Shown: one piece after another, positions 27,190 through 58,817 of the stretch
Layout of the letters: each line of letters begins with the position of its first letter
Position numbering within the stretch: position 1 is the first letter of the stretch
From: an uncultured virus (IMG/VR IMGVR_UViG_3300020057_000040)
Taxonomy: Duplodnaviria > Heunggongvirae > Uroviricota > Caudoviricetes
Length of the DNA stretch: 64,000 nucleotides
Reading direction: 5' to 3' (one strand)
IMG/VR virus record: IMGVR_UViG_3300020057_000040
Position numbers and translations under genes: made by a program
Notes under the pieces: generated by a model
Databases searched by the model: none
Seen by the model: only the letters and a program-made list of their open reading frames with translations
Told to the model about the DNA's origin: nothing

Positions 27190-27214
27190 ATTAAAAAATA
27201 ATTATATTTGTATT

Positions 27215-29033: not shown

Positions 29034-29043
29034 AATAAACCAA

Positions 29044-29458
29044 GTGAACTACCCCTACCTTAAAAGGTAGTGGCTTCGGAAACGAAGCCCAAGTTCACAA
29101 GACTAAGTTCTCAGAAACGGGAGCTACGATTGAAAACTCATAACACCAACGGTTAACGCAATAGACCGTTGCTCTGTTGATTACATTTAAGAAGGGTCAA
29201 GGGATAGGCTTGGTGATGTAGTCGAAAAAAGGTTTTTAATCATTGTCGAATTGAAGTCGGATTTTTGAAATGGTTACAGTTTCAAAATACGCATTACCAA
29301 CCGAAAGGTTGTGTTTGGTCAGAAATGACCGATTTTATTCAAATGGAACTGCAAGGATTAATTTCTTTGCAGTTTCAAATGGATTTTTTAAAAACAAAAT
29401 GAAAGCGTTGAGTTCGCTTACATCCCATAGCCTAAAGGCATAGGGGTTTTACGCTCAA
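29044..29458 (+). mobile_element. ORF-less IS200/605 element consisting of an omegaRNA (HEARO-like) plus right end
   Basis: GTGAACTACCCCTACCTTAAAAGGTAGTGGC start, CACCAACGGTTAACGCAATAGACCGTTGCTCTGTTG hairpin and CATTGTCGAA motif; right end near-identical to those at about 17030-17090 and 62711-62772. Confidence 0.8.
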
Positions 29459-30296: not shown

Positions 30297-30431
30297 ATGT
30301 TACAAGTAAAAAATATTCAAACATCAATTTGGCACACGGCAGCGATAAAAGGCTGTGCAGTCATTTCTACTACCTTTATGAATACGGAGAAGGGGAATGA
30401 TTATGCCGATGTCGGGGTAACTTGTGATTAA
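30297..30431 (+). CDS. Leader peptide of tRNA operon 1 (44 aa)
   Basis: MLQVKNIQTSIWHTAAIKGCAVISTTFMNTEKGNDYADVGVTCD; contains TGTCGGGGT, complementary to the terminator 5' arm. Confidence 0.7.
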   Translation: MLQVKNIQTSIWHTAAIKGCAVISTTFMNTEKGNDYADVGVTCD

Positions 30432-30454
30432 ATACTTGAAAAAATATTAAATCC

Positions 30455-30485
30455 AAACCCCGACAGAAATGTTGGGGTTTTTTGT
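30455..30485 (+). terminator. Attenuator terminator ahead of tRNA operon 1
   Basis: AAACCCCGACA-GAAA-TGTTGGGGTTT followed by TTTG. Confidence 0.85.
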
Positions 30486-30651
30486 TTTACAAAAGTTTTA
30501 AAATAGTTCTTTGAAAAAGTATTGAAAAAAAATTGGCTACGGCTTTTAACCAACAAACTTGCGGACGATGGTTACGGAAGCGAGAGTGTGGCAGTAGCCG
30601 ATGAAATTAATTAACGAGTGATGATATAACGGGGAGAAAGTACGACTGTAA

Positions 30652-30756
30652 ATGCAATTTCTTGTCCACTTTGCAACTTCTCAATCATCCCAATAGAGAA
30701 AATATGACACAAAAAAATGCAACTTCTTGTCCACTTTGCAATTTTCTCAAATCACC
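30652..30756 (+). repeat. Two-copy direct repeat of about 38 bp
   Basis: AATGCAA(T/C)TTCTTGTCCACTTTGCAA.TTCTCAA at about 30651 and about 30716. Confidence 0.75.
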
Positions 30757-30773
30757 GTTGATTAAAATATTAT

Positions 30774-30856
30774 GCCTATTTCGCATAGTGGTCGATTGCA
30801 CCTGATTTGTAATCAGGATACGAAAGTACACGGGAGTTCAAATCTCTCAATAGGCT
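30774..30856 (+). tRNA. tRNA-Thr(TGT)
   Basis: Cloverleaf; anticodon arm CCTGA-TTTGTAA-TCAGG. Confidence 0.85.
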
Positions 30857-30870
30857 CAGTAAAATAAAAT

Positions 30871-30943
30871 ATCGTTATAGCTCAGTTGGCAGAGCATCGG
30901 GTTCATATCCCGAATGTCGGAAGTTCGATTCTTTCTAACGATA
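30871..30943 (+). tRNA. tRNA-Met/Ile2(CAT)
   Basis: Anticodon arm TCGGG-TTCATAT-CCCGA. Confidence 0.85.
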
Positions 30944-31401
30944 CAGTAAAAAAATGTTCTTTGAAATATTAAAATATTCGATAGGTGTAAGCGGAACGCA
31001 GAAACCGAATTGAATAGAGCGAGTTACCATGTAAGATTTTAAACAGTTAGCTGTTTATTATTTGTGTCGGTGAGAAAAAGACGGCTGTTAGCCCCACTAA
31101 GGCAATCGCATACAAACGTTGACCCGATGAAAAATAACTTCAATGAAGTTTGGAAGTGTAGAGATTTTGTTATTGGTATTGTTTTGCTTTGGAATAAAAA
31201 TATTTTTGGTTGGAGGTTCGCCTCTCTTTTTGGATGTACAATTCAGGAATTACAAAATCGGAAATAAAGCAAAGTAATACTAATGATTAATGATTGAAAC
31301 GCAAACTGATTTGATGAAACACACTTGGAAATCCTTTCTGTGCTGAAAGGAGAAAACACAAAAGCACACAGATGTTCTCGCTCTTAAAATATTTTTTAAA
31401 T

Positions 31402-31475
31402 ACGCAATTAGCTCAGTTGGTCAGAGTACGATACTGATAATATCGAGGTCGGGTGTTCAAATCACTCATTGCGTA
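31402..31475 (+). tRNA. tRNA-Ile(GAT)
   Basis: Anticodon arm CGATA-CTGATAA-TATCG. Confidence 0.9.
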
Positions 31476-31478
31476 CTT

Positions 31479-31554
31479 TGCGGGGTAGAAAAGTGGAAAT
31501 TCATGGGGTTCATATCCCCACCATGCGAGGGTTCGATTCCCTCTCCCGCTTCCA
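31479..31554 (+). tRNA. tRNA-Met(CAT), initiator-like
   Basis: Anticodon arm TGGGG-TTCATAT-CCCCA, unpaired 1:72 position, encoded CCA. Confidence 0.85.
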
Positions 31555-31557
31555 TTT

Positions 31558-31632
31558 GGACGAGTAGCTCATGGTAGGCAGAGCAGTTGATTGTTAATCA
31601 AAAGGTAGGAGTTTCGACCACTCCCTTGTCCG
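31558..31632 (+). tRNA. tRNA-Asn(GTT)
   Basis: Anticodon arm TTGA-TTGTTAA-TCAA. Confidence 0.8.
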
Positions 31633-31663
31633 CAACAAAAATGTTCTTTGATAAAATAAAAAT

Positions 31664-31737
31664 GGGATATAGGTGTACTTGGGTTGCATACCATACTGTC
31701 TATATGGTGGTGTCGGGTTCAAATCCCGAATATCCCG
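31664..31737 (+). tRNA. tRNA-Asp(GTC)
   Basis: Anticodon arm CCATA-CTGTCTA-TATGG. Confidence 0.85.
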
Positions 31738-31749
31738 CAACAAAAAAAT

Positions 31750-31819
31750 GCACGTCAGGCTATTGGCAGCCAAGCGGATTCCAACCCCGCAGGACAGAGT
31801 TCGATTCTTTGGATGTGTG
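31750..31819 (+). tRNA. tRNA-Trp(CCA)
   Basis: Anticodon arm GCGGA-TTCCAAC-CCCGC; T-arm GTTCGATTC. Confidence 0.75.
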
Positions 31820-32786
31820 CGTAGTAGAGTAGAGGCATTATGGGGCAAAGTCTTATTGTATGTAAATACGATGTAGAAAAATCCCCGCCTTGCTCGGAAA
31901 TTGAATATTAATAAATTAAAAAAAATGTTTTTAACTTGGGAATGAAAATAAAATATGCAGAGTAGGTTTACAAGACCGATGTGATTCGACGGGATGCGAA
32001 TGGAAAAAAGTATTTGGATACTGTTGTTCAAATACCGTGAGGGTAGATAACGAAGTTGCAAAAGCAAAAAATGTTGAAGTAAAAAAAATATCAACTTTAA
32101 AAAGTATAAATAAAAAAACGCTTAAAAAAGATATTCAGGAAAAAGAACACTTCCTGAAAAAAATAACAGAACCATCGAAAGATGATTTTACAAAAAAAAT
32201 AAACATTCCAATTCAAGATGATTGGATTAAAAAAATAAAAACAAATGAAAACGGACTTAAATTTTTTCGTGAATAAAGATGCAGGGCGATTTATCGTTCA
32301 CAGTTATCGTACAGGTCGCAAATATTTTGTCGAGCCTATCGAGAACGAGCATACTCCAATATGGGGTGATGTGAACCCCGCCACAGGAAAAATTGAAGGT
32401 GCGTATGGCATGAAGCATCGTGGTGGTATCAAAGAAAAAGAATCTTTGATTACAAAAGAAAATGGATTTAGTAAAATTCATTATACAGGTGTTGGTAGCT
32501 CACCATTAAGTTACATAACTGATTTGGATGAAAAATATCCATCTCTAAAAAATTAGAAATAATGAAAACGTATAAGGTAAATTTAAAAAATAAAGAAAAT
32601 GAAGTTGTTTTAACACATAATTTGTTTGCATGGAATGATGAAGATGCAAAAGAAAAGTGTGATGTTTTAGTAAATAGTGCAAGAAATAAAAATGTAGTTT
32701 CGGCTACGTTAGCTTAAAAAAAAATAAATAATGAAAACAAAATCAATTAAAATGGAAACAGACGAACCCTTTGAGCGTAGATATAT

Positions 32787-32859
32787 GTTCGGGTCGTCTA
32801 AAGGTTAGGACGTTTGGTTTTCAACCAAAAAATAAGGGTTCGATGTCCCTTTCCGAATA
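32787..32859 (+). tRNA. tRNA-Glu(TTC)
   Basis: Anticodon arm TTTGG-TTTTCAA-CCAAA. Confidence 0.8.
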
Positions 32860-33030
32860 CAGAGTAAAAAATTGTTCTTTGAAAATATTGGTTATTAGTA
32901 AATCAGCTTCCGTGAGTGCTAAGTTTTCGGTAGCAGTAAGAACCGACGAAAGTATTGAAAGATACCTGACGGAATAATTAAGGTAACGGTGGCATATACG
33001 TTAATCTAACTGAAACTAATAACCTTTAAT

Positions 33031-33106
33031 GCGGGAATAGCTCAATTGGTAGAGTATTAGCCTTCCAAGCTAAATGTTGCGAGTTCGAGCCTCGCTTCCC
33101 GCTCCA
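33031..33106 (+). tRNA. tRNA-Gly(TCC)
   Basis: Anticodon arm TTAGC-CTTCCAA-GCTAA; CCA end. Confidence 0.92.
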
Positions 33107-33115
33107 ATAAAATAA

Positions 33116-33186
33116 GTTCCTATGACCGAAGGAATAGGTGCATCTCTGCAAAAGATGATATAGTGGTTTGAATCCACTTAGGAACT
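33116..33186 (+). tRNA. tRNA-Cys(GCA)
   Basis: Anticodon arm CATCT-CTGCAAA-AGATG. Confidence 0.85.
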
Positions 33187-33545
33187 CTGAAATAAAAAAA
33201 GTAAAAATGAAAAATATAAAATCACATAGATTGAAACTTTAAGTCATTGGTGAGCAAAACCAATGGCGATAACTTTCAACGCTATGAAAAACATGAAACG
33301 TGCCGAAAGAAGGTACAAAAAACAAACTAAGTTTTTAAAAAGAATAAAAGTTTGGACTACGGGTATGTATCAATTCAACCCGATAACATTAAATGAATTG
33401 AAAAAAAATATTTTAGAAGGTAAATCACACACCTTCTTAAAAACAACAAGCCGTCCTTGTAATTGTTATTGTTGTACGTATTTAAAATATAATCGTACAC
33501 CGAAACATAAAGTGATGAAGGAGGCATTTAAAGAATAATAAATTC

Positions 33546-33617
33546 GGACGTATAACTCAGGGGTAGAGTAACGCCCTCATAAGGCGGAGGTCGGTGGTTC
33601 AAATCCATCTGTGTCCA
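33546..33617 (+). tRNA. tRNA-Met/Ile2(CAT)
   Basis: Anticodon arm CGCC-CTCATAA-GGCG. Confidence 0.85.
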
Positions 33618-33659
33618 CAGTAAGAAGTAAAATGATAGAAGTATTTTGAATTAAAATTT

Positions 33660-33733
33660 GGGGATGAAGCACAATTTGGCTGTGCAAAGGCTTTGCAAGT
33701 CTGAGGTTGTGAGTTCGAGGCTCATCATCTCCA
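33660..33733 (+). tRNA. tRNA-Ala(TGC)
   Basis: Anticodon arm AGGC-TTTGCAA-GTCT; G3:U70. Confidence 0.85.
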
Positions 33734-33747
33734 CATAAAAAATAAAC

Positions 33748-33820
33748 ATGGGGTTAGCTCAGTTGGTAGAGCGTTTGCATTACAAGCAAAATGTCATTGG
33801 TTCGATTCCGATACTCCATA
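33748..33820 (+). tRNA. tRNA-Val(TAC)
   Basis: Anticodon arm TTTGC-ATTACAA-GCAAA. Confidence 0.88.
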
Positions 33821-33915
33821 CAAAAACTAAAAATTAAAAAAATGATTGCTACAAGATATAAATTTTTAACTGTTACTTTTTCGTCAAAGCGAAAGAGTAA
33901 ACGTTATTAATTATA

Positions 33916-33988
33916 TCCCCTTGTAGCTCATTGGTAGAGCTTCCGACTTTTAATCGGAAGAAAAAAGTTCGATTCTTTTCAGGGGGAC
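33916..33988 (+). tRNA. tRNA-Lys(TTT)
   Basis: Anticodon arm TCCGA-CTTTTAA-TCGGA. Confidence 0.8.
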
Positions 33989-33996
33989 AAAATAAT

Positions 33997-34063
33997 GTCC
34001 CTTTAGCTGTTAGGTTTATTTTTAATGAGAGGGTCATGGGTTCAAATCCCATAAGGGACACCA
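33997..34063 (+). pseudogene. Degenerate, D-arm-less tRNA-like gene (TTT-like loop)
   Basis: Intact acceptor stem GTCCCTT/AAGGGAC plus ACCA and T-arm ATGGG-TTCAAAT-CCCAT; D-arm missing. Confidence 0.65.
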
Positions 34064-34120
34064 AGAATTTTTTAAAATAAATTTTTTACTTCAAATAAAA
34101 TAAATTACATTTGCATCTCA

Positions 34121-34186
34121 ATGTACAGCACACGGGAAATAAACAATACTACATCACTTCGCCTCCGAAGACGAAGGATTATATAA
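34121..34186 (+). CDS. Arg-rich leader peptide of the tRNA-Arg operon (21 aa)
   Basis: MYSTREINNTTSLRLRRRRII; Arg codons CGG, CGC, CGA, AGA, CGA, AGG; promoter TACATTTG at 34106-34113. Confidence 0.75.
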   Translation: MYSTREINNTTSLRLRRRRII

Positions 34187-34253
34187 TTATTGTTCCCAAT
34201 CTTCATTTTTTTCAAGAAATTTTATAGGTTAATATCGGGAACGTAAATACTAC

Positions 34254-34326
34254 TTTCCCGTAGTTCAATTGGAAGAACAAAAATTTTCTAAATTTTAGGT
34301 TGTGGGTTCGACCCCCATCGGGAAAT
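34254..34326 (+). tRNA. tRNA-Arg(TCT)
   Basis: Anticodon arm AAAAT-TTTCTAA-ATTTT. Confidence 0.85.
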
Positions 34327-34339
34327 CAAAAAAAAATAT

Positions 34340-34413
34340 GGTTTCGTAGCTCAATTGGATAGAGCATCGCACTACGGATGCGAAGGTTGGGAGTTCGAGC
34401 CTCTCCGAAATCA
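34340..34413 (+). tRNA. tRNA-Arg(ACG)
   Basis: Anticodon arm TCGCA-CTACGGA-TGCGA. Confidence 0.9.
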
Positions 34414-34462
34414 CAAAAAGTTATTAACGGATAGAATTTAATCAAACTAAATTAATATATTT

Positions 34463-34534
34463 GTGGTTATAGTTTAATTGGAAAAACATCAGTTTCCTAA
34501 ATTGAAAATAAGAGTTCAAGCCTCTTTAACCATT
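34463..34534 (+). tRNA. tRNA-Arg(CCT)
   Basis: Anticodon arm TCAGT-TTCCTAA-ATTGA. Confidence 0.75.
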
Positions 34535-34541
34535 CTAAAAT

Positions 34542-41225: not shown

Positions 41226-42146
41226 ATGGGTGGTGGTAATTGGTCAGATGATGCTTATAAGCACATCGCTTCGTCATACAAGAGTAAATCTATTGATGAT
41301 ATTTTCGTAAACAATAAAAAAGGAATAGTTGGAAAAGATATGTCCCCAAAGGATATTAAATTCCGTGAGTGCCGTGATAGCGTAGACCATCCTAACGCAT
41401 TTGGTGTGATGGTTATGTTGGATGAAACAGGAAGTATGGGTGCAATCCCTGAAATATTGGTACGTGATAAATTAGGTACATTAATGGAATCTTTAATTAA
41501 ACACGGCATAAATGATGCACAAATTTTATTCGGTGCAATTGGCGACCATTACTCTGACAATTCACCTTTACAGGTAGGTCAGTTTGAATCGGGAACTGAT
41601 GAATTAAACAAATGGTTGAGTTCTATCTACCTTGAAGGTAATGGTGGTGGTCAAAACAGAGAAAGTTATTCACTCGCTTGGTTATTTGCTGCAAGGCATA
41701 CATCAATGGATTGCTTCGAGCGCAGAGGGACTAAGGGGTTACTTTTTAGTATTGGTGATGAATCCAATCATCCTGTACTTGAAGCAGACCGTTTGAAAGA
41801 TTTAATGGGGTACGCACAGGCAGAAGATATTACCGATTCTGCTATCTTATTAGAGGCTCAACGTATGTTCCATGTATTCCATATTCACGTAACGCACGGT
41901 TATCGTGGAAAGGATAATTCTGTTACGGACTATTGGAAAAAAGCGTTAGGTGAGCGTTTAATCATGTGTGATGACCATAACCAAATTGCTGAATTAATCG
42001 CTTCAACTGTTGCAGTTATTCACGGAATTGATTTGGATACTTTCACAAAAACATTCGACCCTAAAACAGCTATTGATGTGAAGAACGCTTTAGCTAAAGT
42101 AACAAAAGATATTACTACAAAAGATAGTGGTGTAATTAATTTATAA
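41226..42146 (+). CDS. vWA-domain protein
   Basis: MIDAS-like DETGSMG, AIGD, LQVGQFES, GNGGG..ESY and IGDE motifs. Confidence 0.85.
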   Translation: MGGGNWSDDAYKHIASSYKSKSIDDIFVNNKKGIVGKDMSPKDIKFRECRDSVDHPNAFGVMVMLDETGSMGAIPEILVRDKLGTLMESLIKHGINDAQILFGAIGDHYSDNSPLQVGQFESGTDELNKWLSSIYLEGNGGGQNRESYSLAWLFAARHTSMDCFERRGTKGLLFSIGDESNHPVLEADRLKDLMGYAQAEDITDSAILLEAQRMFHVFHIHVTHGYRGKDNSVTDYWKKALGERLIMCDDHNQIAELIASTVAVIHGIDLDTFTKTFDPKTAIDVKNALAKVTKDITTKDSGVINL

Positions 42147-43710
42147 AGGTTTGCAGCTTGGCGTTTGGTTTTTTTCTTCAAAAAACTGACGCTAAGTTGC
42201 TGTTACTAAAAGTTAAAATTGGCATAACAAAAAAGAAAAAAATGGAATTTAACGAAGAATTAATATTGACATTTGCCTTATTTCACACAAAATGAAAAAC
42301 GAAGAACAGAACTCAAATAAACCACAGAACTCGGCATTTAATATAGCCGATGTTAGCGTTAGTGCTTCTCGTAAGCCGAACCCTTATCAATTGGTATGGT
42401 ACAACGCTAAGTGGTCAAAAACAAGAACTGAAAAGAATAATGATAAATATTGGCAATTTGAAATTGAACACAATAGTATGCGGTTACTATAGCATTACCG
42501 CTAACGCCCATTGCTTTATGTCAGGTGGGGAATTTGAAATACAAAAGTTTAATTAAAGCACAAAAGATGATAGAAGTACAAATGTTCAATTTAGCAGTTC
42601 AGCCCCACTTGCATAAAGCAGATGTTGGCAGTAGTGCTTTGCAGTTATCCCCAATTCAAGTTAATCAAGACTATTTGAATGAGTGGAATAACAATAGTAA
42701 TGATTTTGTTTGCCTTACCAAAAATGGCGAACTGATAAGCAAATCTCTTTACAGAGTTGGTGGTTTTGGTTGTGATATAAAGCAAGATTATTTTATGCTA
42801 CTTAAATATGTAGAAGCTATTTATGAATTTGATTTTATACAAAAATGCTATCCAAAGAAAAGCAGAAAAGAACTTGAATTACAAAGGAAGCATTTAGAAG
42901 GTCGCTGGTGTATCATTGATAAAAACGGGGTTGAGAAAAAAGAATTTGACAAATTTAAAAACCCTTATATAAAAAAAGGTAGTTGCTTTTATTCAATTGA
43001 TAGCAATTACTACAATATTGAAACAGGGGAATTTTACTGCAATTCTTCTAAAAGTATGGAAAGTTCAGAGTTTATTTTTCTTGAAAATTCCTATGATAAA
43101 GATTTGTCAAAAAGAGGTGTAATGAAAATAAATAAGAAAGATGGTAGTTGGTCGCTGTTTTCGTAGCATTACTGCCAACGGTTTGTAGGTTTATTTAGTT
43201 CGGGATTTAACAGATGAATTAACTTAAAAGCATAAAATATGAAATTACTAAAATGGTTATTTGGGAGCAGGAAACCCGCATTGAATAAACCTGCTGTTAG
43301 CAGATGTGAAATTATCCCTTTCGAGCGTGGGATGCTCATAAAAATTAAAACAAAAAAAACAAATGGAAAAGACACTTTATTGGCGTGTAGAAAGTACTGG
43401 AGATTTATCAGTTACTGTTAATGATATTACACAGTTAAAAGAAATTATTGAATGTGACTTTGCCTATGAAAGCGAAGATGGTGCATTTGATATTGAAGCC
43501 TTGCAATATATAATTACGCCACAAATGCTTACGAAAGAAGATTACGAGGCTTTGGGAGAGCAGGAACGGTAATTTTATTTCTGCTAACGTTTTGCAGCTA
43601 ACCGATAGTTTTTGCCATTGCAAAAATTTTGGTTAGGTGCTGTTATAAGAAGTGCCGACTTTTCAGAACTAAAGCCAATTTGAAATACTAAACAGAAAAA
43701 TAAAAGAGAG

Positions 43711-44184
43711 ATGGTAATTTTAAAAGAAAACGATAATCTAAAATTTGTAACAGCTCATTTGGTTGAGATTGCAAAAATGGCAACTTGTAAACGTTCAAAA
43801 TGTGGAAGCATTATAGTTGCTGATGAATGTGTAATAATTGGCGAAGGTTATAATAGTATGCCCTGTAATGAAAATGGAGAGTGTTTTAAAGACAAACTTG
43901 CACCCACATTCAAAAGTGACAAAACTTGTTGCATACACGCAGAACAAAGAGCGATAATGGATGCTTTAAAAAACAGGTGGCGTGACCAAATTAAAGGAAG
44001 CACTTTGTTTTTTATACGACTTGATGGAAATGATAATCCAAAACATAGTGGCGAGCCGTATTGCTCTATTTGCAGTAAAATGGCACTTGATGTAGGAATT
44101 GAAAGTTTTGTTTTATTGCACAAAGAAGGTTGGACTTCTTATAATACAAAAGAATATAATGAACGAACATTTGAATACAAGTAG
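43711..44184 (+). CDS. dCMP/cytidine deaminase-family protein (cassette gene)
   Basis: C..SKCGSII..GYN, HAEQ.A and PYCSIC motifs. Confidence 0.85.
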   Translation: MVILKENDNLKFVTAHLVEIAKMATCKRSKCGSIIVADECVIIGEGYNSMPCNENGECFKDKLAPTFKSDKTCCIHAEQRAIMDALKNRWRDQIKGSTLFFIRLDGNDNPKHSGEPYCSICSKMALDVGIESFVLLHKEGWTSYNTKEYNERTFEYK

Positions 44185-47100
44185 TGCGTCAGCTAGGCAT
44201 TTCTTATAACGGTTCTCGGCTTGGCGAAGGGCGATTATTAACCGAAAATGCTAATATGAAGAACTAAACAAAAATTTTAATATATGGAATTAGGCAGAGA
44301 ATATTTAATAAAAGAAGGGTTCGTTTTTATGCATGGAGATTGTTACCAACATGACTATTGCCCAGAATTTGGAAGGGATGACCCTTATAGATGGATGTTA
44401 TCGGTATCACCGCATAACAGAGTAAGGCTAAAAGAAAGCTGTATTGAGATTGATACTGTTGAAAAACTTTTAGCTGTTTACGAATTTATAAAAAACGAAC
44501 CCATTATGGATAATGATGAGAACGGGAGGGATAAAATATTAAATTTTTTGAAACGAAATTCTTACTAATTAAAAAAATAAAACATGGAAAAATATGTAAT
44601 AAAAAATAGATTTGGACAATACGTTAATACAAATGAACATGATGGTAAAAAATTAGATTATTTTTTAGACGACGACCAAATAGATGTCGCTAAACAATAT
44701 GCAGATTATGACATAAAAATGATACAAGAAAGATTTATAGACACTTGGCGTGACGATGGATTTAAAGTTTTTAAAATAATTATAACTTTAGAGGCGGTTG
44801 AGTCACATATATTTAATAATATAAAACTTTATTTATCAGGACAAGATGATATAATTGGCGGAGTATAGTAGTTTTCTAAATATTACCACTAACGGACAGG
44901 GCTTGGCGAAGGTGGGGAATTAGAAGCACTACCGTTAGTTTTAGCACAGAAGATTGATAGAAGCACAAAGGTTCAATTTACTACCGAACCCCCACTTTTG
45001 CCAAACGTGTGTTATAACTAGTAGGGATTTCTACCGAAAATGCTCATTTGGAACACAAAAAGCAGTTTTATTATTTTTTAGGGAGGGTTTTTAACCTTAA
45101 TTATCAATTAGTTACAAACTACTTTAAAGAAAGTGAAAATAAATTAGGTAGATTTGAAACTAAGGTATTACCTTTGACGTATAAATTAATAACAATCACT
45201 TAAAAATTAATAACAATCACTTAAAAACTTATCAAAATGAAAAAAGAAAAAACAATCAAACTTTACTCGGTATCGAGTGGACTTTATGCGGATGATAGTC
45301 TGTTTCCTCCTTTTGCAAACGTATCTGGAGATTATGTTACAGACTTAAATATTGCAATGGAAACATACAATTCAATTACAGCACAATCTTTCGATAAAAA
45401 AGAAGTGCTAATTGCAAGGATGCAAGGCTATAAAACCTACAACAAAACTATTCTTTGTGCTGAAATGCCAATTTCTATTTACGAAGATTTGTGTTTATTA
45501 GGAGATGAACACGAGCCAATATCAAAAGAAGAAGCACAAGAGAGAACTAATGAATATGTTTGGCATCAGTCTGTTAGGTTTTTAGATAACATTAAAGATG
45601 AAGTATTTGAAATTGAAGGTGGAATATCATCGCTTAGTATAACAAACGTCCGTAAATGGACAGAGGAAGAAATTGCGGTTTCCTGATAAGTTCCGTGATA
45701 TTGGTAATTGCTCATAATGCGTAAAAAACAATCCGCTTACATTGGAAGATGTGTAGCAACAAATTTGAAACATGAATTTGGGTTGGTTATGAGCAGTTGC
45801 CTTTTATTTAAAAATTAAATTATGGCAGAACGAATATCCCTTAAATTAAGCAACGAAAATGACTGGTTGATAGAATCTATTGAACAGGAACGAAAGAAGC
45901 AGAATAGACCATCTCAAAACAATATGATTGAAACTATACTTGTTTCCTTTTTTGAAGAGCGTGGGAAAAAAAATAATAAAACTGCTAAACGAAATGTTAA
46001 ATCGAAGGACTGAACCCCTATTGGTTATAACGGCTGACGCTATACGAAGGTGGGGATAAAGATGCACAACCCTTGCTTACCTCATAAAATCAAATTAGAT
46101 GCACAACTGTACAAATTTGGCACATCCCCACTTTTGTATAGCTTATGTTATAGGCTTATAAAACTTACAAGTGATGTTTACAGAAGAAAATTTAAAAAAT
46201 AGCACAGAATTTAAGGAGTGGATTACAGGTAGAATTGCTTTGATACACAACACTTATTTTGATGGCAAAGAACCGTATCAAGCATATATCGTTCTCCACT
46301 CCGATATGGGTAAATGGACGATAACAAGATTTTGGAAAAGCCCAAAAAGGAAAGACCAATTAGATAAAATACACGTTAGTAACGACCACGTTGAAATTTC
46401 AACAGAAGAAACTTTCAAAATATTGTTATCGGATTATAGTCGTGGGTTGGCGTAATTTTCATTTGCCTATAACGGTTTGCAGATTTGCGATGGGCGGGAC
46501 TTATGAAAAAGAATTTATAAATTAACAACAAAATTTTATATGAAAACAGAAACATCATTAAACCACGAAACCCCGCCTATTGAAAATGTGCTGTTAGTGG
46601 CTAGGCTTGTTACGGTTCTAAAAACACCGATAACAGAAAGATATTGCAAGGTAGGTGATACAGCTACCTTAGATTTAAAAAATAAACAAATTAGATGTAG
46701 TGGGGCTTGGTTCAAATTTGATGACCGTTGGGTTGTTCAGCCTTGACACTAACGTTTTTCAGCTATGAGCAGTACAGCCTTGTACATAGTTTCAATTTAG
46801 CACAAAGGTTTATTGGCTGTATTGATTATAGGTGCTGTTAGCAGTAGGTTTTCTTAAACAAAAGTAAAATGAAACAAGAAATAACATTAGAACAATACCT
46901 AAGATTAGGAGGTAAATTGGAAAGAGTAAATTGGCGTGATGCCTTTTGTGATTATGGCGACCACAATAGAGGTGCGAAAGTAGTATCTTATGAAGATAAA
47001 GGTGAAAAGGGTGGGCGCGATACACCGCTATTTCATTTTACTTTTGACAATGGTAGAACTCATAGATACGCTATCGGTTGGATAAAAATAAAGGTTGATT

Positions 47101-47456
47101 TTGTGTTGGCTGAAACTTACCGCTAACGATTGAGTATTGGCGTTGTTGCCATCACAAAATTAAATTAATATCACAAAAACTTTAAAATTATGAAAGATTT
47201 ATTAGAAAGCACAAAAGGCAATAACGCTAATACTTTGTTAGGCACAGGTTTTTGGTGGATAGAATACGATATTGATTGTGAGTTGTGGGATAACAAAAAG
47301 AGAAACCAATGCGTATCAGACCAGCATCCGTTTGAGTGGTTAAAATTTATTTCTAAAATATCATCATTCACAAGAACATTGATAAATTGGAAAGAAATAA
47401 CTGAAAAAGAATATAAGTCAGGAAAAGAAATTTTAGGTATTGGGTAAACTTGTACC

Positions 47457-47767
47457 TAACGGAATGAGTATTGGAGAAGTTTTTAATGCGATTTTGAAAC
47501 ACTAAATAAAAATATATATGACAACAGAAGAACAAATAGTAAAATGGTTTGCAGACTTTAGAAAAGAGAACCCAAAGTTTGAAAACGAATATGTTGATAA
47601 CGGACAACTAATTTATTGGTTAGCACAAAAGGAAGCATTAAAAATTTCTTCCAATACTGTGTTAGCGGATAGTTGCCGTTTTTATGAACAGGATAATACT
47701 ACAGCGATGAACTGCAAACATTGTGGTAAGGGTAAATATATGCACGGAAACAGCAATTTACGCTAAC
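47457..47767 (+). repeat. Cassette (site plus ORF 47518-47766), duplicated at 50711-51021
   Basis: About 311 bp near-identical; both copies run from TAAC to TAAC and encode identical 82-aa proteins. Confidence 0.95.
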
Positions 47768-50710
47768 GGTTTTCGGCTTTGCGATGGTGGGGAAATCTAA
47801 GCACCAAAGTTGGATTTATTACTAATGTTTAATCAAGGCACTAATGTTTAATTTTGCACGTCAGCCCCACTATTGCAAAACCGATGTTATGTGCCGTTAA
47901 TTTTCAAAATACAATGGTAGAAGAAATGTTTTATGTAAAAAATGACGAAAGAATGAGTAAAGTAAAATCGTTTATTCGTGAAAATATGCCAACAGCAAGA
48001 TTTAAGAGTAACCCATACAAATACTCAAACGGGAAATGGGAATTTAATATTAGTTATGAAATTGGCGATATGAATAAATTGTCAATTTTACTAAACGACT
48101 TTTATAATGAAGATAATCATAAACTTATTAAAAAAGAAAGTTTGTGGGAACGGTTTTTAGCGTGGGCGTTTTAATGGCACATAACGTATCTGGGCTTGTA
48201 GCAGTAGGGGATTAAAAGCACTAATGTTTATCGAACCACTAAAACTGATTAGAAGTACACAGCTCAATTAAAGCACTTCTACCCCTATTGCTACAAACCC
48301 TTGTTAGCGGTAGTACGGTTTAATTTACGAGGGATTATCAATTTAAAACGAAACAAAATGGAAGGTTATTTAGGTGAAACAATTTTAGATATTCATAAAA
48401 CAAAATACGCAATGTATGCGCCACAGGATTGGGTAATTATGTGGATTGAAATGTATGGTGGTTTTGATGGTGAACATCACAAGGCTTGGCTAATTGACCA
48501 AATTGCAAGAATATTAAAAGGAACAAAAGTAATTGTCAAACTTGCAAAATGGGATTCTGGTAACGAAGAAGAAAGATTTACTTTGGCAGATGCACCGCCT
48601 GAATATCATAAATGGGTGCAGGAAATGTGCGATGGTGAAGATGGTGCTGATACATACACTTACGATGTTGGTTTCGCTCCGTAGTATTACCGCTAACGAA
48701 CAAGTATTTGCGAAGGTTTTGTTCTTCACAAAACTTTACGCAAATACATTGTTAGCTTTAGTATTTTAAACTTTTTGAGCGTGGATTATTAACAATTAAA
48801 TAAATATAAAATGAAAAAATCAGCAGAAGAATTTATCAGAGAAAAATCATTTCCAAATGGAATATCAGAAGACAAATGGGAAGAACATAAAAACACTCAT
48901 TCGGGAACAAATTGGGTCGGGTTTGCAATAAAAGCAATGGAAGAACATACCAAACAAGAACTGATTGCCTTTAAAAAGTGGTATGATAAACTAAGCCCAA
49001 CCGAGAAGATTTCCGTTTGGAGCGAAGATGGAAGCCAACAGGGTTTATTCAATTTATCGGACGAACAAATAATTGATAAATGGAATAGATACCAAGAGCC
49101 GAAGAATACAAAATTTGCAAACCCTGATGCTGTGATTGATGTTATTACTAATTAGTGCGGTGGCAGAAAAAGTTTAAAATATTGAAGCTAACGGCATCAA
49201 GCTAAAAGCTGACCGCCTTTATAAGCGGTTAGTAGGTGGCGGTTTGATTTTAGGTTGTGTTATATTTAGTATTTTAAAATTTAATTGAAAAGACATGAAA
49301 CTGAAAAACTTAAAAAAAGAACAATTAATAAAACTGTGTGAATTTAGACTGAAACACGAAAATAAATATTTTACTGAAATATCAATAGAGGATAAGAGTT
49401 TTAAATATCTAAATGGTGTATCGTATATTGTAAAATCTGATAAGTGGAGTGATTATCGTTTTTCAGTTTCTTTTGATATGTTTTATCCTGATGAATTTAT
49501 GTATCTTTTAGAGTTGGGTGTGGAATTTTAAAATATTGAATATAACGGGTTCGGGCTAAACGCAGTTGGCTTTTCGCCAATTGTCGTTTTAGCCCATGTT
49601 ATATTCTCGTTCTTTTTCTTCTTTTTTTTGTGCGAGGGCTGTATTTCTACCATGTTCACTAAAAACAATCTCTTTGTATATCAAGTAGTTATGAAGTATT
49701 TTGAAAATAGTTGTAAAGGTATAGTAGGTATATGAAATACATAGTGTATATTTGCTGTATAATTAAAAACAAACAAAATGGAAAATGCAACAATCACAAC
49801 CACAGATGCCCACCTTACTTCGGTTTACATCCTACAAGACGAGAAAGGAAAGCTGCATCACAGCAGTTACCGCCCAACTGAACACTTTAAACACCACAAA
49901 ACAAGCGGTGCTGATGTTTGGTCTTTACAATGCGGATGCTTTATGGACAAGCCAACTCACGATTTTTGGATTGGGGACACTATTGATTGTCATATTGGAT
50001 TTATGGCAGCGTGGGGTATTTCTAACTTCAATGCAAAACTAAAAATTGTTGCAAAAAGTAAATACATTTGGGATTACTCTTTACCCGTTGGCGAAAGAAT
50101 GTTGGACACCAAATCAACAAAGAACTATATTGAAATGCTAACTAAATATCGCAACCAAGCAAAATGAAAAAACCAAAGAATATTCATCTAACGGAAGGTG
50201 CAATCAAAGCCCTTTCCATTCAGGCGATAGAAAACGGCACGAACTTCAAAAATTATGTAGAAGCAAAATTGGAAGCACTTGCCCAAACCTCTAACAGTTT
50301 TGAAAAAACTGAAAAGGGGGAGAAAAAAAAGAAGAAAAAGAATGGAATATAACGTTTTGGAGCTAATAAATCGGGCGGTTAGCGGTTATGTAATGTCCGC
50401 CTGTTTATTAGGTGCTGTTATGTTTTCGGTTTGCTACAAAGAATATTAATCAATTAAAATAAATAAAAAATGCAAGTAGAGGAAAAAAGGCTTATAACAA
50501 CTGTAAATGTTTATCACTTTAAAATAAGTATAAATAAAGACGATTATTTTTTTATAGCTGAAACTCTAAATATTGGAGGAGGCGAAGAAGTAATAGAGAT
50601 AAGGCGTGGAAAAGCTGTTTTTGATTGTGCTAAAAGATTAAAAACAAGCGAAAAAAAACAAGTTAAAAGAATGATTGAATTGATGTTTAACGTCTAGGCA
50701 AACTGGAACA

Positions 50711-51021
50711 TAACGGAATGAGTATTGGAGAAGTTTTTAATGCGATTTTTAAACACTAAATAAAAATATATATGACAACAGAAGAACAAATAGTAAAATG
50801 GTTTGCAGACTTTAGAAAAGAGAACCCAAAGTTTGAAAACGAATATGTTGATAACGGACAACTAATTTATTGGTTAGCACAAAAGGAAGCATTAAAAATT
50901 TCTTCCAATACTGTGTTAGCGGATAGTTGCCGTTTTTATGAACAGGATAATACTACAGCGATGAACTGCAAACATTGTGGTAAGGGTAAATATATGCACG
51001 GAAACAGCAATTTACGCTAAC
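50711..51021 (+). repeat. Second copy of the duplicated cassette, adjacent to the integrase
   Basis: Matches 47457-47767. Confidence 0.95.
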
Positions 51022-51071
51022 TACTATATGTACGTTTTGCTTATAAATGATTAATACTTAATAAAATACAA

Positions 51072-51911
51072 ATGGATATTACACGGTGGTATAACAGATA
51101 TTGTACTGATTCTAAACTTAAATATCCAAGTTTTAGAACTCAGAAGAATTATCAATGTACTGTTTCGTTATTTCTTCAATACTTTATAAATGAGATTGAC
51201 CCTCAACATATACAAACGCAAAAAATAAAAGAATGGTTAGTTAAATTTGAAACTATTAATACTCGAAACCACAAACTTTGTGCAATAAAATCTTTCTATA
51301 AAATTACAGTTTGTAAACCATTAAAATTAGATAAAATACAATTTTCTAAAAAAGATAAAAAATTACCAATAGTTTTATCTGTTGATGAAATACAAAAAAT
51401 GTTTAATGTTTGTGAAAACAAAAAACACAAAGTTATTTTAGCTTTACTTTATTCGTGTAGTCTTAGGGTTTCAGAATTAATAAATTTAAAATGGCAACAC
51501 ATTGATAGAAGCCGAATGATAATTAATATAATTCAAGCTAAAGGAAACAAAGATAGGCAAGTCGGATTAAATGATAAATTGATTAAGTTGTTAGAGGATT
51601 ATTATAAAGAATATAAACCAAAAGAATATATTTTGAACGGACAGTTTCCTGATAAGCAACTTAAATATTCTGATAGAAGTGTTGGAGAAGTTATCAAACA
51701 ATTAGCTAAAAAATCAGGGATAACTAAAGGTGTTCACACACATTTAATTAGACATTGTTCTGCAACACACATGGTAGAATCGGGTGTTGATATTAATTTA
51801 ATTCAAAAACTTTTAGGTCATGGGTCTGTTAAGACTACTAATATTTATTTACATATTTCGCATAATCACATCTCTAAAATACAATCTCTATTACAAAAAA
51901 TTAGTTTATAG
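51072..51911 (+). CDS. Tyrosine recombinase (IntI/XerD-like) with no obvious IntI-specific insertion
   Basis: KKLPIVLS..EI, LRVSE (R), AKGNKDR (K), HLIRH, LLGH and TNIY catalytic residues; 279 aa. Confidence 0.95.
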   Translation: MDITRWYNRYCTDSKLKYPSFRTQKNYQCTVSLFLQYFINEIDPQHIQTQKIKEWLVKFETINTRNHKLCAIKSFYKITVCKPLKLDKIQFSKKDKKLPIVLSVDEIQKMFNVCENKKHKVILALLYSCSLRVSELINLKWQHIDRSRMIINIIQAKGNKDRQVGLNDKLIKLLEDYYKEYKPKEYILNGQFPDKQLKYSDRSVGEVIKQLAKKSGITKGVHTHLIRHCSATHMVESGVDINLIQKLLGHGSVKTTNIYLHISHNHISKIQSLLQKISL

Positions 51912-51915
51912 AAAT

Positions 51916-53118
51916 ATGAAAAAAATAAAAATAATTGTTGGCTTAAATTTTGGTGATGAAGGAAAAGGATTAACAGTATCGTATCTTTGTAACCAATCTA
52001 AAAACCCTTTAGTAATTCGTTTCTCAGGTGGACAACAAGCAGGTCATACAGTTGTTCACGAAGGAAATCGTCATGTGTTCTCAAATTTCGGTAGCGGTAC
52101 AATGCAAGGTCATCCGACTTATTGGAGTGAGTATTGCACTTTCAGTCCGCTCGGTGTTTTGAATGAACACAACGCCTTGAAAAAAATAAAAGGTTTAGAA
52201 CCTAAATTATTTGTTCATCCTTTATGTCCCGTTACTACACCTTATGACCGTGTGTTTAATTGTCAGTTGGAAAAATCAAATCAACACGGCTCTTGCGGTG
52301 TCGGTGTAGGTTCAACAATCCAAAGGCAAGAAGATTATTATAAACTTTTTGTTCAGGATTTATTTCACGAAAACGTATTAATTCAAAAATTGCAAAATAT
52401 AAAAAATTATTATGCAAAGAAACTTGCTATTTCAAACCCATACATTGATGAAAAAATGGGTGTGAATATGGATGATTTTATTCACATAGTTAATGAAGTG
52501 AAAAAAATTATTACTGTTGATAATGGTAGTGAACTTTTATCACAGAATGGTTACGATTTAATTTTTGAAGGTTCACAAGGAATTTTGCTTGACCAAGATT
52601 TCGGTTTCTTTCCTAATGTAACACGTAGTAATACCACTTCAAAAAATGCTCTTTCGATTATCAATAACGATAAATATTTAAGCATGATAAATAAAAGTGA
52701 TATTGAAATTTATTATATCACTCGTTCTTATCAAACCCGTCACGGTAACGGTTATATGAGTAACGAAAATTTATTCGGTGAATTGAATTTAAAAAATAAC
52801 GAACTCGAAACAAACGTAACAAACGAATGGCAGGGTAATTTCAGAAAATCTGTTTTGGATATAGATTTATTGAAGTACGCTTTTCAATGCGATTCAAATT
52901 TCTCTCATGGTATAACAAAACATTTAGTTGTAACTTGTGTTGACCAAACGGGAGATATTATTCCTGTAACTATTAATAACGGTGATAATAATATTTTATA
53001 TAATATTCATATCGAAGAATTACCAACCCGTTTACCTGTAAATTTTAAAAATGTTTATATCAGTCGTGGAGATACAACCGATAAGATGTCAGTTATTTAT
53101 TTAAATAATCATATATGA
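51916..53118 (+). CDS. Adenylosuccinate synthetase-like protein (start reassigned to ATG 51916)
   Basis: GLNFGDEGKG, RFSGGQQAGHT, FEGSQGILLD and TRHGNG motifs. Confidence 0.88.
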   Translation: MKKIKIIVGLNFGDEGKGLTVSYLCNQSKNPLVIRFSGGQQAGHTVVHEGNRHVFSNFGSGTMQGHPTYWSEYCTFSPLGVLNEHNALKKIKGLEPKLFVHPLCPVTTPYDRVFNCQLEKSNQHGSCGVGVGSTIQRQEDYYKLFVQDLFHENVLIQKLQNIKNYYAKKLAISNPYIDEKMGVNMDDFIHIVNEVKKIITVDNGSELLSQNGYDLIFEGSQGILLDQDFGFFPNVTRSNTTSKNALSIINNDKYLSMINKSDIEIYYITRSYQTRHGNGYMSNENLFGELNLKNNELETNVTNEWQGNFRKSVLDIDLLKYAFQCDSNFSHGITKHLVVTCVDQTGDIIPVTINNGDNNILYNIHIEELPTRLPVNFKNVYISRGDTTDKMSVIYLNNHI

Positions 53119-55633: not shown

Positions 55634-55710
55634 GGTGTTATTAGCTCAGTTGGTTAGAGTGCCTGATTGTGGTTCAGGAGGTCGTGGGGTCGTAGCCCAC
55701 ATAATACCCA
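55634..55710 (+). tRNA. tRNA-His(GTG)
   Basis: Anticodon arm CCTGA-TTGTGGT-TCAGG; G-1 present. Confidence 0.88.
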
Positions 55711-55713
55711 AAA

Positions 55714-55806
55714 GGAGAAGTACCCAAGTTGGTTAAGGGGGCAGTTTGCTAAACTGTTAGGTCGTGTAAAAACGATGCGTGAGTTCGAGCCTCACTTTCT
55801 CCGCCA
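55714..55806 (+). tRNA. tRNA-Ser(GCT)
   Basis: Anticodon arm GCAGT-TTGCTAA-ACTGT; long variable arm; CCA end. Confidence 0.92.
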
Positions 55807-55839
55807 AGAGTAAAAATGTTCTTTGAAAATGAATTTATT

Positions 55840-55922
55840 GGAGGGATGCGACCAACGGTGGTCAACTGCGTTTGAAGCGCAGGGCGGTCTTTACGGACAG
55901 GGTTCGATTCCTAATCTCTCCG
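55840..55922 (+). tRNA. tRNA-Ser(TGA)
   Basis: Anticodon arm CTGCG-TTTGAAG-CGCAG; long variable arm. Confidence 0.85.
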
Positions 55923-55936
55923 CAAAAATTAAATAA

Positions 55937-56020
55937 GGGAGTTTATCCAAGTGGTCAACGGGGACAGACTGTAAATCTGTTGGCTTTATGCCTTCGTAGG
56001 TTCAAATCCTACAACTCCCA
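55937..56020 (+). tRNA. tRNA-Tyr(GTA)
   Basis: Anticodon arm ACAGA-CTGTAAA-TCTGT. Confidence 0.92.
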
Positions 56021-56033
56021 CAAAAATAAATAT

Positions 56034-56120
56034 GCCGATATGGTGAAATTGGACAAAGACACAACAGACTTAAAATCTGTCGCCTTCAATGGCATCCCGA
56101 TTCGAGTTCGGGTATCGGTA
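56034..56120 (+). tRNA. tRNA-Leu(TAA)
   Basis: Anticodon arm ACAGA-CTTAAAA-TCTGT. Confidence 0.88.
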
Positions 56121-56134
56121 CAAAAAATAAATAT

Positions 56135-56220
56135 GCGGGTATGGCGAAACTGGCTGATACGCACCTGTTTTAGAAACAGACGCTTTAAATGGCATAAGGG
56201 TTCGACTCCCTTTACCCGCA
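56135..56220 (+). tRNA. tRNA-Leu(TAG)
   Basis: Anticodon arm CTGT-TTTAGAA-ACAG. Confidence 0.88.
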
Positions 56221-58817
56221 CAAAATAAAAATAGGTAACTATATATCTATTGGGACAAGGTTTAAAATTTTTAAGCCGTTTTTGTAGGAAATAACAAACA
56301 TTTTATTTTTTCACATACTTTTCTTTGTATTCTTGTTTAAGTTCTTCTTCGAGTTCAAACATCTTATCCCACTCAGGTAATTTTCTTAAATCATCACGGC
56401 TTCCATTATCCCATAAAAAATGTTGGTTATACGTAATTAATTTTATATTTGGTTCATATAACTTGAATAATGGGTATCTGTTTTCTGCCTTTGGTAATAC
56501 GTGTGAAAAATTACTAACACTAAATTTATAAATTGGTTCACCGTTAATAAATGATATGTGTTCCTTCATACTCTCCCACATGGATTGCATGAGTTGTAAT
56601 TCTCCTGTCGGTACTCTTTTATAAGTTATAGGACTTTTCTTTAACTGTTTATAAACTTTCTTTGGCTTATCCTTATTTTTTTCTATTAATTTCTTTCTTT
56701 TTTCACCTGCATAATGATAACCGCATAACGGTGGATTTCGTTTTGATAATCGTTTTACTTTATCGTCTGTACACATACTGCATACACCTTCCATTATTAT
56801 CATAACGATAATGTTATTTTAAATTTTACAGTAAATATTTTCTTTAATATCAGTAATTTTTAATTTTTCAATTATTTTCTCCATACTTTCAATACCCGTA
56901 GGTGCAAGTGTGAACCTTTCAACCTCAATTCCTTTATCGTTACAACAAAGTAAAGTCCAAACCATATTATTACCTAATGCAATTAATTTATAACTACTGT
57001 ATCGTTCCGTTTTTAATTCGTGTACCCTATCTTCAAACCAATCGGATACATCTACGGTTATTCTTATTTTCATAAAATATTTTATAATTTTTAATTACTC
57101 CAATTGAATGTAAATGAATCTACTGTATTTAATTTTTTGAATTTATCACCGAATGTTTCTTTAGCATAATTTTCTAACTTATCATATAGTTCATCATATT
57201 TTATTAATGTATCACTAACTGTTTTTACTGATTGCTTAGTATTCCTGTATGATAAACTTGATTGTACCCAACCTTTAAAGTAAGTATCTATGTAATCAAA
57301 GCAGCTATTCCTATTTAAAAAAACACCATGCCAAATAGAAACAACAATATCATCATCCAATATGTAAGCGACAGTATTCCATTCTTTAATGAAAACAATT
57401 TCTAATATTTTTTTTATATCCATTATGATTAAATTTCAGTTTAAGCCTTTTTACCGAATATGACATTACTCTCAAATATATCTTTTTTTAAATGATAACA
57501 CTCATTTTTTATTACCCGAATAATAACATCTGCTAATAAATCGTTTTAGTTTTTAATTAACTTCTTGTTGCAAATGGTGATTCGTTTTTTACCATTCCGA
57601 AATTATAAATCTTATGTTTCTCAGCAATATCTGAAATTTCATCACGGGTCATTGTTTCTAATAATTGATTACGTGCGACACAAACAGTATCAAACAAAAT
57701 TAAGTTCGCCTGACCTTCCGTTAAGTTGTCTATGGTGTATTTCAAATAACGTTCAGGAGTAAATTCTTCATAGTAAATACCTGTAATTATAATTTTTACT
57801 TTCCTTAGTTTATCCTTATCGGTTACTTTACCGAAAAAGTATTTATCAAATTTTTTACCTTGTTCTTTTTGTTCGGATTTTGGCATAATCTTTTGCAATC
57901 TGTTTCGGATGTTAATACATATCTCGTGGCATATAACCAATACATCAATGGTAGTTAATTCATTTCCTTTTTCTTCACCGTCAACAAATAGTAACATCTT
58001 ACGGTCAGGGTGTGGTACATCACAGAAGTCACCTGATATTTCTAATTTAAACGGCTTTAGTGTTTTCATATTTTGACATTAAATCATAAATTCTTTTGCT
58101 AATTTACTACATAATGAAGTGAGTTCTTTTTCGCCTGAAATATTTTCAGTTGTTTTGTCATCAACTCTGCGGTATAATGCGTTTATTATAGCCGTTTTTT
58201 CTTTTTCATTAAAAATAAAATTGAATATAAATTTTCTCATGTTAATTTTTTTTTTAAAACGTTAAACCAATCAGTAAATTTTTTATTTTGTATTTTTTTT
58301 ATGTTTGCAATTAAAATGTTTTGGTCTTACAGATTCCATTATTTTTTTAGTTTATTATTAATAAAAACATATTCAGCGTGTGAAAGTGCTTGATGGTATT
58401 TTTTAACCGACTTAATGAAACCAAAGAAAGCCATTTTGCTAACACCAACATATTCGTTACCATAATCCAAAGGTTCTCTTTCTGTTTTAGGAAATATTTT
58501 TTCCGTGTTAGAATCCATAGAGTTTTTAAGCAACTCGTATTCGGCTGCATTTAAAGCAAAGTGATATTTATTCATAACAGATAATAAGTGTTTAAAACTA
58601 TTACCTGAATCAAACTTCTTTTTGTAAATACCATCTTTAACTCTATTCCTAACAGGAAATATTTTTATTGATTCCATTGCTTCTGTAATTTTATCAACTT
58701 TTTTTTCTACTGCTTCTGCCATCTTACGAAGCAACTCCAAAGTTTCAGGTGAACAATTGGGACTGACTGTTGCAACTGACTTTGAAGTTACCCGTATATG
58801 GCGGTGGTCATCAAACA

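Follow-up and report, generated by a model that had tools for sequence, protein, structure and literature searches.

Integron surveys define their system by the insertion of the integrase IntI, and one of them reports, in the accessible part of its text, a single complete integron in Bacteroidetes (PMC9024848). In Bacteroidales, the system named rAID-1 pairs a recombinase of the XerD family with intergenic repeats described as "reminiscent of integrons", and is given, in the available text of its account, for 226 of 423 genomes (Ross et al., bioRxiv 10.1101/471110). The criteria stated there are a 5′ recombinase of XerD-like type whose identity with the B. fragilis protein exceeds 44%, and at least two co-directional low-GC genes downstream. 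Here we analyse 64,000 nucleotides (nt) from an uncultured virus placed in Caudoviricetes (IMG/VR record IMGVR_UViG_3300020057_000040; "the window" denotes this whole stretch), in which an array of hairpin-bounded gene cassettes lies upstream of a gene for a 279-residue tyrosine recombinase. An earlier note on this DNA had proposed a distinct integron-like system. We consider it likely that the locus is a phage-borne cassette shuffler, working like an integron and run by its own recombinase, which lacks the IntI insertion; the system is real, and apparently active.

Site structure, crossover zone and rearranged arrays

At the level of sequence, comparison of related loci establishes the structure of the sites, the strand that folds, the zone of crossover, the rearrangement of arrays and their linkage to the recombinase. 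In the window, a hairpin detector finds 16 complete sites of the form YAACG-spacer-stem-loop-stem-TGTTR, all on the + strand between 42502 and 50918 (scores 13.5–21); 12 Markov versions of the region give one to five sites each at a looser threshold of 11. Adding a degenerate site, a remnant and a half site (listed below), the last two being matches to a covariance model built solely from phage sites, for which E-values are rough, we arrive at much the same count as the earlier note, which had put it at about 18. All open reading frames (ORFs) between the sites are on the + strand. As had been proposed, the array ends in a hairpin-less TAAC (51018–51021), 50 nt before the ATG at 51072, and the two inverted repeats quoted as examples (48751/49192 and 49598/50353) are located where they had been reported.

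The hairpins are tied to the recombinase gene. Across the window and 83 viral loci (454 kb upstream and 651 kb downstream of the integrase, near-identical loci kept in), 208 sites are on the integrase strand and upstream of the gene; the opposite upstream strand has 6, and the two downstream quadrants have 5 and 2. The association, whose lack had been named as a refutation, is thus 208 against 13 elsewhere in 84 loci. The attI-like motif TAAC-TAYTA-TATGTA is present in 48 of the 79 viral loci with enough upstream DNA, mostly 54–78 nt before the start codon.

The earlier claim that the sites conserve structure over sequence is borne out by an alignment of 58 sites of the 120–131-nt class (7 from the window and 51 selected in phage loci, drawn from a set of 166 distinct sites). 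Column identity is 52%, yet there is one common fold: YAACG pairs with TGTTR in a core stem of 5 base pairs (bp) whose last pair is G:T, followed by an unpaired 5′ spacer of 4–5 nt and then a stem with a 5′ bulge. The G:T pair beside the core is present in 57 of the 58 sites, as is a T-A pair in the stem. Compensatory changes occupy 307 cells versus 115 in shuffles, and pairing is 87% in register versus 35–46% once the register is slid, a level partly due to selection, as the aligned sites had been chosen for folding. The inner stems covary, with loop lengths of 5–170 nt.

Folding favours one strand, another point on which the proposal could have failed. Of 166 phage sites, 136 fold more stably on the YAACG strand, and so do 72 of 97 chromosomal sites. 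Since the simple detector credits G:T pairs, the mismatches were recounted with a detector giving them no credit: on the YAACG strand, G:T exceeds A:C by 123 to 62 in phage sites, in line with the earlier observation that mismatches are mostly G:T on the + strand, and by 90 to 32 in chromosomal sites. This bias points to single-stranded DNA and not RNA, because the favoured strand is mostly non-coding in chromosomes.

Beyond the core, the ends of 113 distinct phage cassettes pair with their own partners at 0.89 (positions +1–3), 0.57 (+4–7) and 0.62 (+8–12), as compared with 0.30–0.32 for mismatched ends, and fall to background beyond +12. The median extent of complementarity is 15, reaching at least 15 in 75 of the 113 versus 26% of mismatched pairs; in the window it extends to at least 24 in 5 of 16 cassettes and to only 7 in 2 of 16. 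The outer repeats had been described as 15–30 bp long, which needs correction: in the 113 phage cassettes they usually measure some 15 bp and include a mismatch.

Relatives do not keep one order of genes, although fixed order had been set out as grounds for rejection. Among nine IMG/VR loci with one integrase, L010 has four cassettes in common with L008 and L011 at 98–100% identity and in permuted order, with borders at TAAC, and these arrays begin at one fixed flank that ends in TAAC. L007 and L008, also from this set, match at 99.99% along the 6856 bp that start at attI, and have zero cassettes in common. Two other assemblies, L297 and L303, carry the same attI-integrase DNA as the window from 51018 (99.7% over 303 bp; 100% over 120 bp) with different cassettes; L303 does not differ from the window in the DNA preceding 49193, and has a new methyltransferase cassette between that point and attI. 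Within the window itself a 307-bp cassette occurs twice (47457 and 50711), and identity between the copies begins and stops at TAAC.

Cassettes differ right up to the TAAC of attI, and junctions are confined to TAAC, where the exact base inside the shared core is not distinguishable; the register is that of the veb1 attC site. These comparisons show that units are exchanged exactly within TAAC, and that arrays in one phage population differ in both content and order. The integron geometry suggested earlier, in which the left arm's AAC is the place of crossover and the + strand is the folding ("bottom") strand, is upheld. The 674-bp cassette at 42502 recurs at 100% identity in run X11 (piece 42502–43181). 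In locus L171 the two genes found on either side of this array adjoin each other, the 306-residue gene directly preceding the purA-like gene; this is an empty locus, and the whole 9.8-kb element is therefore an insertion. In runs X6 and X8 contigs end at 42146, with little cover over the integrase in X8 and no bridging contig (contig depth is not copy number), and these ends are not taken as evidence of an empty site.

Recombinase, cassette orientation and proposed cycle

Residues R132, K157, H224, R227, H250 and Y259 are invariant across 32 homologues, and the 279-residue protein is presumably catalytic. It scores 157 bits against the IntI profile TIGR02249 (cut-off 265) in a split match, below IntI membership. 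Its alignment to IntI4 (PDB 2a3v) likewise falls into two pieces, separated by 28 residues versus 68 in IntI4, and the spacing between anchor motifs is 66–70 residues in insertion-less enzymes versus 108–109 in the IntI rows shown, that is, about 40 fewer. The absence of the IntI insertion, proposed from the outset, is thus upheld. An AlphaFold model (predicted local distance difference score 84, predicted template-modelling score 0.60) matches XerA and IntI4 about equally and carries no information on substrate. In one phage locus the integrase match covers about 270 extra bases (L016:10001–11097), which suggests an insertion within that gene.

At least 3438 database proteins match the recombinase at E 1e-30. 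Among GenBank phages no close integrase was found at that threshold, and in the best weak match there (L244) a transposase-like gene comes after the recombinase, with no sites. In a quick tree with five Bacteroidota Xer rows as outgroup, phage enzymes and prophage-like relatives form one clade (31 rows, support 99) and IntI a separate one (17 rows, support 100), both within an unresolved group that also holds chromosomal insertion-less enzymes; the tree does not separate IntI as sister to the insertion-less group from IntI nested in it. The insertion is, according to the accessible text of Smyshlyaev et al. 2021, not fully conserved within their integron-like subgroup.

The longest ORF is on the folding strand in 111 of the 113 phage cassettes and points toward the integrase; 39 of the 113 start inside the hairpin, and 25 stop at the TAA of the closing TAAC. 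Chromosomes whose enzymes are less than 50% identical have classical gene orientation in 44 of 49 cassettes: in 16 of 17 where the array is upstream (the ordinary divergent integron layout, as in Flagellimonas ochracea and Pedobacter agri) and in 28 of 32 where it is downstream on the other strand. The reversal of cassette genes claimed by the earlier note thus holds for the phage clade but not for the system as a whole, and marks the phage lineage within it. Host cassettes would be antisense in a phage array, so that the two pools are probably largely separate, and the folding strand, being the non-template strand, would become exposed during transcription. Two layouts deserve mention on their own account: four + strand sites lie downstream of an integrase fragment at L017:3012–5590, unlike the usual phage arrangement, and in the downstream-array layout the attI region forms a short hairpin (L167:8770–8825; L168:8865–8915), unlike the phage attI.

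The cassette unit consists of AAC, the hairpin site, one or two genes and a closing T. In the cycle that we propose, the recombinase would cleave the folded + strand in the AAC triplet, and cassettes would be excised as single-stranded circles, in which the outer stem is completed by the cassette's own complementary ends, reaching about 12 bp past the core. The circles would then be inserted at the double-stranded attI beside the recombinase gene, so that the newest cassette would be nearest the integrase and the far end would decay. As the genes are on the folding strand and point toward the integrase, they would be read from an upstream phage operon or from promoters within cassettes, and not from a Pc promoter. 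The system probably serves to vary accessory genes quickly. The features of the locus are as follows.

41226–42146, + strand: left fixed flank, 306-residue gene, PHROG 2971 (unknown function)
42144–42205, + strand: degenerate distal site, core TAAAG instead of TAACG, missed by the detector owing to the changed core
42243–42362 (approximate), + strand: remnant site, left arm lost and right arm kept; model match of 22.8 bits
42502–42627, + strand: attC-like site, opens the 674-bp cassette, whose ORF starts inside the loop
43176–43299, + strand: attC-like site (detector and model)
43585–43645, + strand: short attC-like site of 61 nt, z −4.8 on the + strand and −3.4 on the − strand
43711–44184, + strand: cassette gene of the deoxycytidine monophosphate (dCMP) deaminase family (PF00383, 1e-12; PHROG 174)
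44207–44352, + strand: half site, left arm only; model match of 20 bits
44890–45014, + strand: attC-like site, opens a 1138-bp two-gene cassette; TAnnTTTG at 45149 and 45169
46028–46150, + strand: attC-like site with a 91% similar counterpart in phage locus L016
46470–46596, + strand: attC-like site (detector)
46750–46840, + strand: attC-like site (detector)
47124–47240, + strand: attC-like site (detector)
47457–47767, + strand: 307-bp cassette, first copy, TAAC at both ends; its 208-nt site contains most of the ORF
47764–47889, + strand: attC-like site (detector)
48182–48306, + strand: attC-like site (detector)
48694–48754, + strand: short attC-like site, z −7.4
49189–49262, + strand: attC-like site; the divergence of L303 begins at its TAAC
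49543–49601, + strand: short attC-like site, opens an 807-bp two-gene cassette; TAnnTTTG at 49747
50350–50420, + strand: attC-like site (detector)
50711–51021, + strand: 307-bp cassette, second copy (98%), in first position, adjoining attI
51018–51032, + strand: attI-like site TAAC-TAYTA-TATGTA, no hairpin
51072–51911, + strand: 279-residue tyrosine recombinase without the IntI insertion
51820–53118, + strand: right fixed flank, gene of the adenylosuccinate-synthetase family, likely start near 51917

The TAA stop of the left-flank gene, which we take to be von Willebrand factor A-like from a motif, is also the TAA of the first, degenerate core. At the half site two cassettes appear to have been fused by deletion. 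Two cassettes (45014–46028 and 49601–50350) follow a common plan, with a promoter-like region, a gene of 130–150 residues and a small basic gene of 62–63 residues; the small genes may encode DNA-binding regulators, and TAnnTTTG is presumably the Bacteroidota promoter motif. No interbacterial immunity gene was found among 20 cassette ORFs searched against Pfam and PHROGs; other arrays of this phage carry DNA methyltransferases. A lone, weak site-like hairpin (56726–56816, + strand, score 13, no model match) lies among minus-strand genes about 5 kb beyond the integrase. An Rfam search returned nothing relevant, with one chance match to a small nucleolar RNA.

None of the 23 larger ORFs tested is a virion gene, and we call the genome a phage because of its PHROG matches, its 21 tRNAs and transfer-messenger RNA (tmRNA), and its IMG/VR relatives. 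The tmRNA call is of the permuted type, and the tRNA genes form two clusters (window 27206–34535 and 55635–56221).

Competing explanations and the wider family

The site model matches 66 of 121 genomes of the phylum of Flagellimonas ochracea (Bacteroidota; centre genome included), as compared with 2 of 121 in a control phylum, one of them the centre genome itself. Many of the Bacteroidota arrays adjoin split, insertion-less matches to the IntI profile. In L275 and L276 (G428) the arrays behind the recombinase are broken up by repeated copies of a 437-residue ORF, a putative group II intron reverse transcriptase.

Several observations weigh against a shuffler run by its own insertion-less enzyme. 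Canonical IntI exceeds the TIGR02249 cut-off in 37 of the same 121 Bacteroidota genomes, and a looser detector finds YAACG..TGTTR hairpins with similar ends next to 12 of 46 canonical IntI loci. A site within 1.5 kb is present at only 18 of 64 chromosomal loci, though many contigs end there. Close relatives of the enzyme lack cassettes and stand beside transposase genes of the IS91 type (L169:7971–10008; L244:326–2319, by likeness), a pairing that makes an origin in rolling-circle elements possible. In run X3 one contig omits exactly 50711–51017, with a 4-base overlap, and other contigs join different DNA to 51018. This speaks for the shuffler, but the joint counts as supporting evidence only: it occurs in one contig, whose short side has 26 bases, and the run is possibly the source of the window. 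No circle junction occurs among the 15 of 25 contig joints listed. Finally, the IntI insertion is described as essential for integron function in the accessible text of one report (PMC8138268).

The first two of these points would suit another explanation, in which canonical IntI of the host moves the cassettes in trans and the phage recombinase has some other role, such as resolving genome dimers. We judge this improbable. The simple detector is not specific to the family and matches sites beside canonical IntI too; 8 of the 12 IntI loci with such hairpins are from Bacteroidota, most with a similar 4–5/1-nt spacer, and the family sites and IntI-linked sites are close kin that differ in the position of the bulge. 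The family model, in contrast, gives one weak match in 46 canonical IntI loci versus 84 matches in 65 insertion-less loci (with longer flanks), and attI and array stay fixed to the gene of the phage enzyme across 54–100% identity. The count of 37 in 121 (L214–L243) is in itself far above what published surveys of complete genomes suggest.

Two sites described by others bear on both sides of this question. About 11 such sites lie on the coding strand of the cultured Polaribacter phage P12002L (found with the model filters off and missed with default filters), and this phage has no annotated integrase, as expected if an enzyme in trans serves them. Its attC1 is a member of this site family by model match, and was, in the available text of Qi et al. 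2023 (PMC9892861), the sole failure among six phage attC sites tested with IntI1. The 133-bp veb1 attC (L170:4910–5050, NZ_CP031802.1) matches the phage-only model with 40.2 bits (E 5e-6) in the same register, whereas the other attC sites in the same stretch of the veb1 integron have no model match. IntI1 does act on it, but, according to the accessible text of Aubert et al. 2012 (PMC3518468), 50-fold less efficiently than on the aadB attC.

Homologues of the phage recombinase, 39–41% identical and apparently 5′-truncated, directly precede blaVEB-3, tet(X3) and tet(X5) on plasmids; a plasmid search with IntI1 as query returned IntI1 alone. The blaVEB-3 gene is directly behind a 41% identical recombinase (L167), and the gene annotated tnpF/xerD before tet(X3) and tet(X5) is such a homologue (L168:8067–10222; L166:4516–7415). 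The tet(X3) gene is followed by one visible site arm, a truncated site that scores only 12.1 bits, and the link to the family is drawn because of this right arm and the neighbouring recombinase.

It is just as doubtful that the recombinase acts in Xer-like fashion on double-stranded sites, with 11-bp arms and a 6-bp spacer, and that the hairpins serve RNA processing or termination. The enzyme does lack the IntI insertion, archaeal XerA is among its best matches in fold and in sequence, the complementarity of cassette ends spans about 12 bp, and in the phage the folding strand is the mRNA strand too. However, the inner stems covary across their widely varying loops at low column identity, the strand bias persists in chromosomes, where the folding strand is mostly not mRNA, and the G:T pair beside the core is possible on one strand only.

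Homologous or microhomology recombination between repeated regulatory elements, as has been proposed for the promoter-stem-loop cassettes of T4-type phages, is most unlikely to have shuffled these modules: some sequence is common among sites, and the ORF starts within hairpins mean that sites carry translation signals, but junctions are at TAAC with 4–5 shared bases in most listed pairs, the two ends of a cassette match one another but not the ends of other cassettes, and arrays lie on one side of the recombinase only.

The preferred explanation, a shuffler run by its own recombinase, has a broader form to which we give an even chance: insertion-less recombinases and their hairpins would constitute a second integron superfamily, present in roughly half the species of Bacteroidota, either the sister or the ancestor of IntI, and home of some clinical cassettes (veb1, probably tet(X3)), within which the phage lineage would be a virus-specific shuffler with reversed cassettes and a separate pool. 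If an insertion-less enzyme recombines folded single-stranded sites, the definition and counts of integrons change, and a comparison of the two enzymes would allow a direct test of where IntI came from. It would also explain why veb1 attC and P12002L attC1 are poor substrates of IntI1, and would suggest Bacteroidota arrays as a source of resistance cassettes. Phages would gain programmed variation of anti-restriction and other accessory genes, and a 279-residue recombinase with structure-defined sites may serve as a tool.

Relation to integrons and rAID-1

The phage system resembles integrons with IntI, including phage-borne integrons and attC clusters without an integron integrase (CALINs) as far as the available text describes them (PMC9892861), in its folded-strand sites with a YAAC/GTTR core and crossover in AAC. 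It also has in common with them the cassette-specific complementary ends, the hairpin-less attI beside the recombinase with, presumably, the newest cassette next to it, an integrase that is encoded on the bottom strand like its classical counterpart, and intact catalytic residues of the tyrosine recombinases. Unlike in integrons, the recombinase is without the insertion of about 40 residues and below the IntI profile cut-off, and cassette genes lie on the bottom strand toward the integrase, whereas classical ones lie on the top strand, away from intI, and are read from Pc. End complementarity extends to about +12, and the bulge is often on the 5′ arm, as opposed to the 3′ arm in IntI-linked sites.

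In the inverted-integrase integrons of Treponema, as presented in the accessible text of Cury et al. 2016 (PMC4889954), integrase and cassette genes are likewise on one strand. There, however, a true IntI is inverted upstream of classical cassettes, while in the phage the integrase keeps its classical strand, lies downstream, and the genes are inverted. The veb1 attC is recognised by the phage-only model in the same register, but its gene has the classical orientation and was captured by a class 1 integron, in which the site is a poor substrate of IntI1 (PMC3518468, available text).

The closest described relative is rAID-1. Locus L282, which carries a Tdi1 immunity gene and agrees with the other rAID-1 criteria, encodes a 36% identical insertion-less enzyme, and its short hairpins share the site architecture of the phage system. 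The two differ in several respects: in rAID-1 the recombinase is 5′ of co-directional genes, in classical orientation and with immunity cargo (bioRxiv 10.1101/471110, accessible text), has an N-terminal extension of about 90 residues, and in L282 is accompanied by sites of about 50 nt with a TAAT core, whereas the phage array is upstream of its recombinase and its sampled cassettes are free of immunity genes. The accessible text of the rAID-1 account gives no site structure, crossover point, evidence of shuffling or phage examples. A literature search, to which most subscription papers were closed, returned no account of the phage variant, the site structure or shuffling. Of the distinct system proposed by the earlier note, the integron geometry and the insertion-less enzyme stand, while its bacterial branch was already partly known, and the locus is best filed as a new phage variant of a Bacteroidota family partly described as rAID-1.

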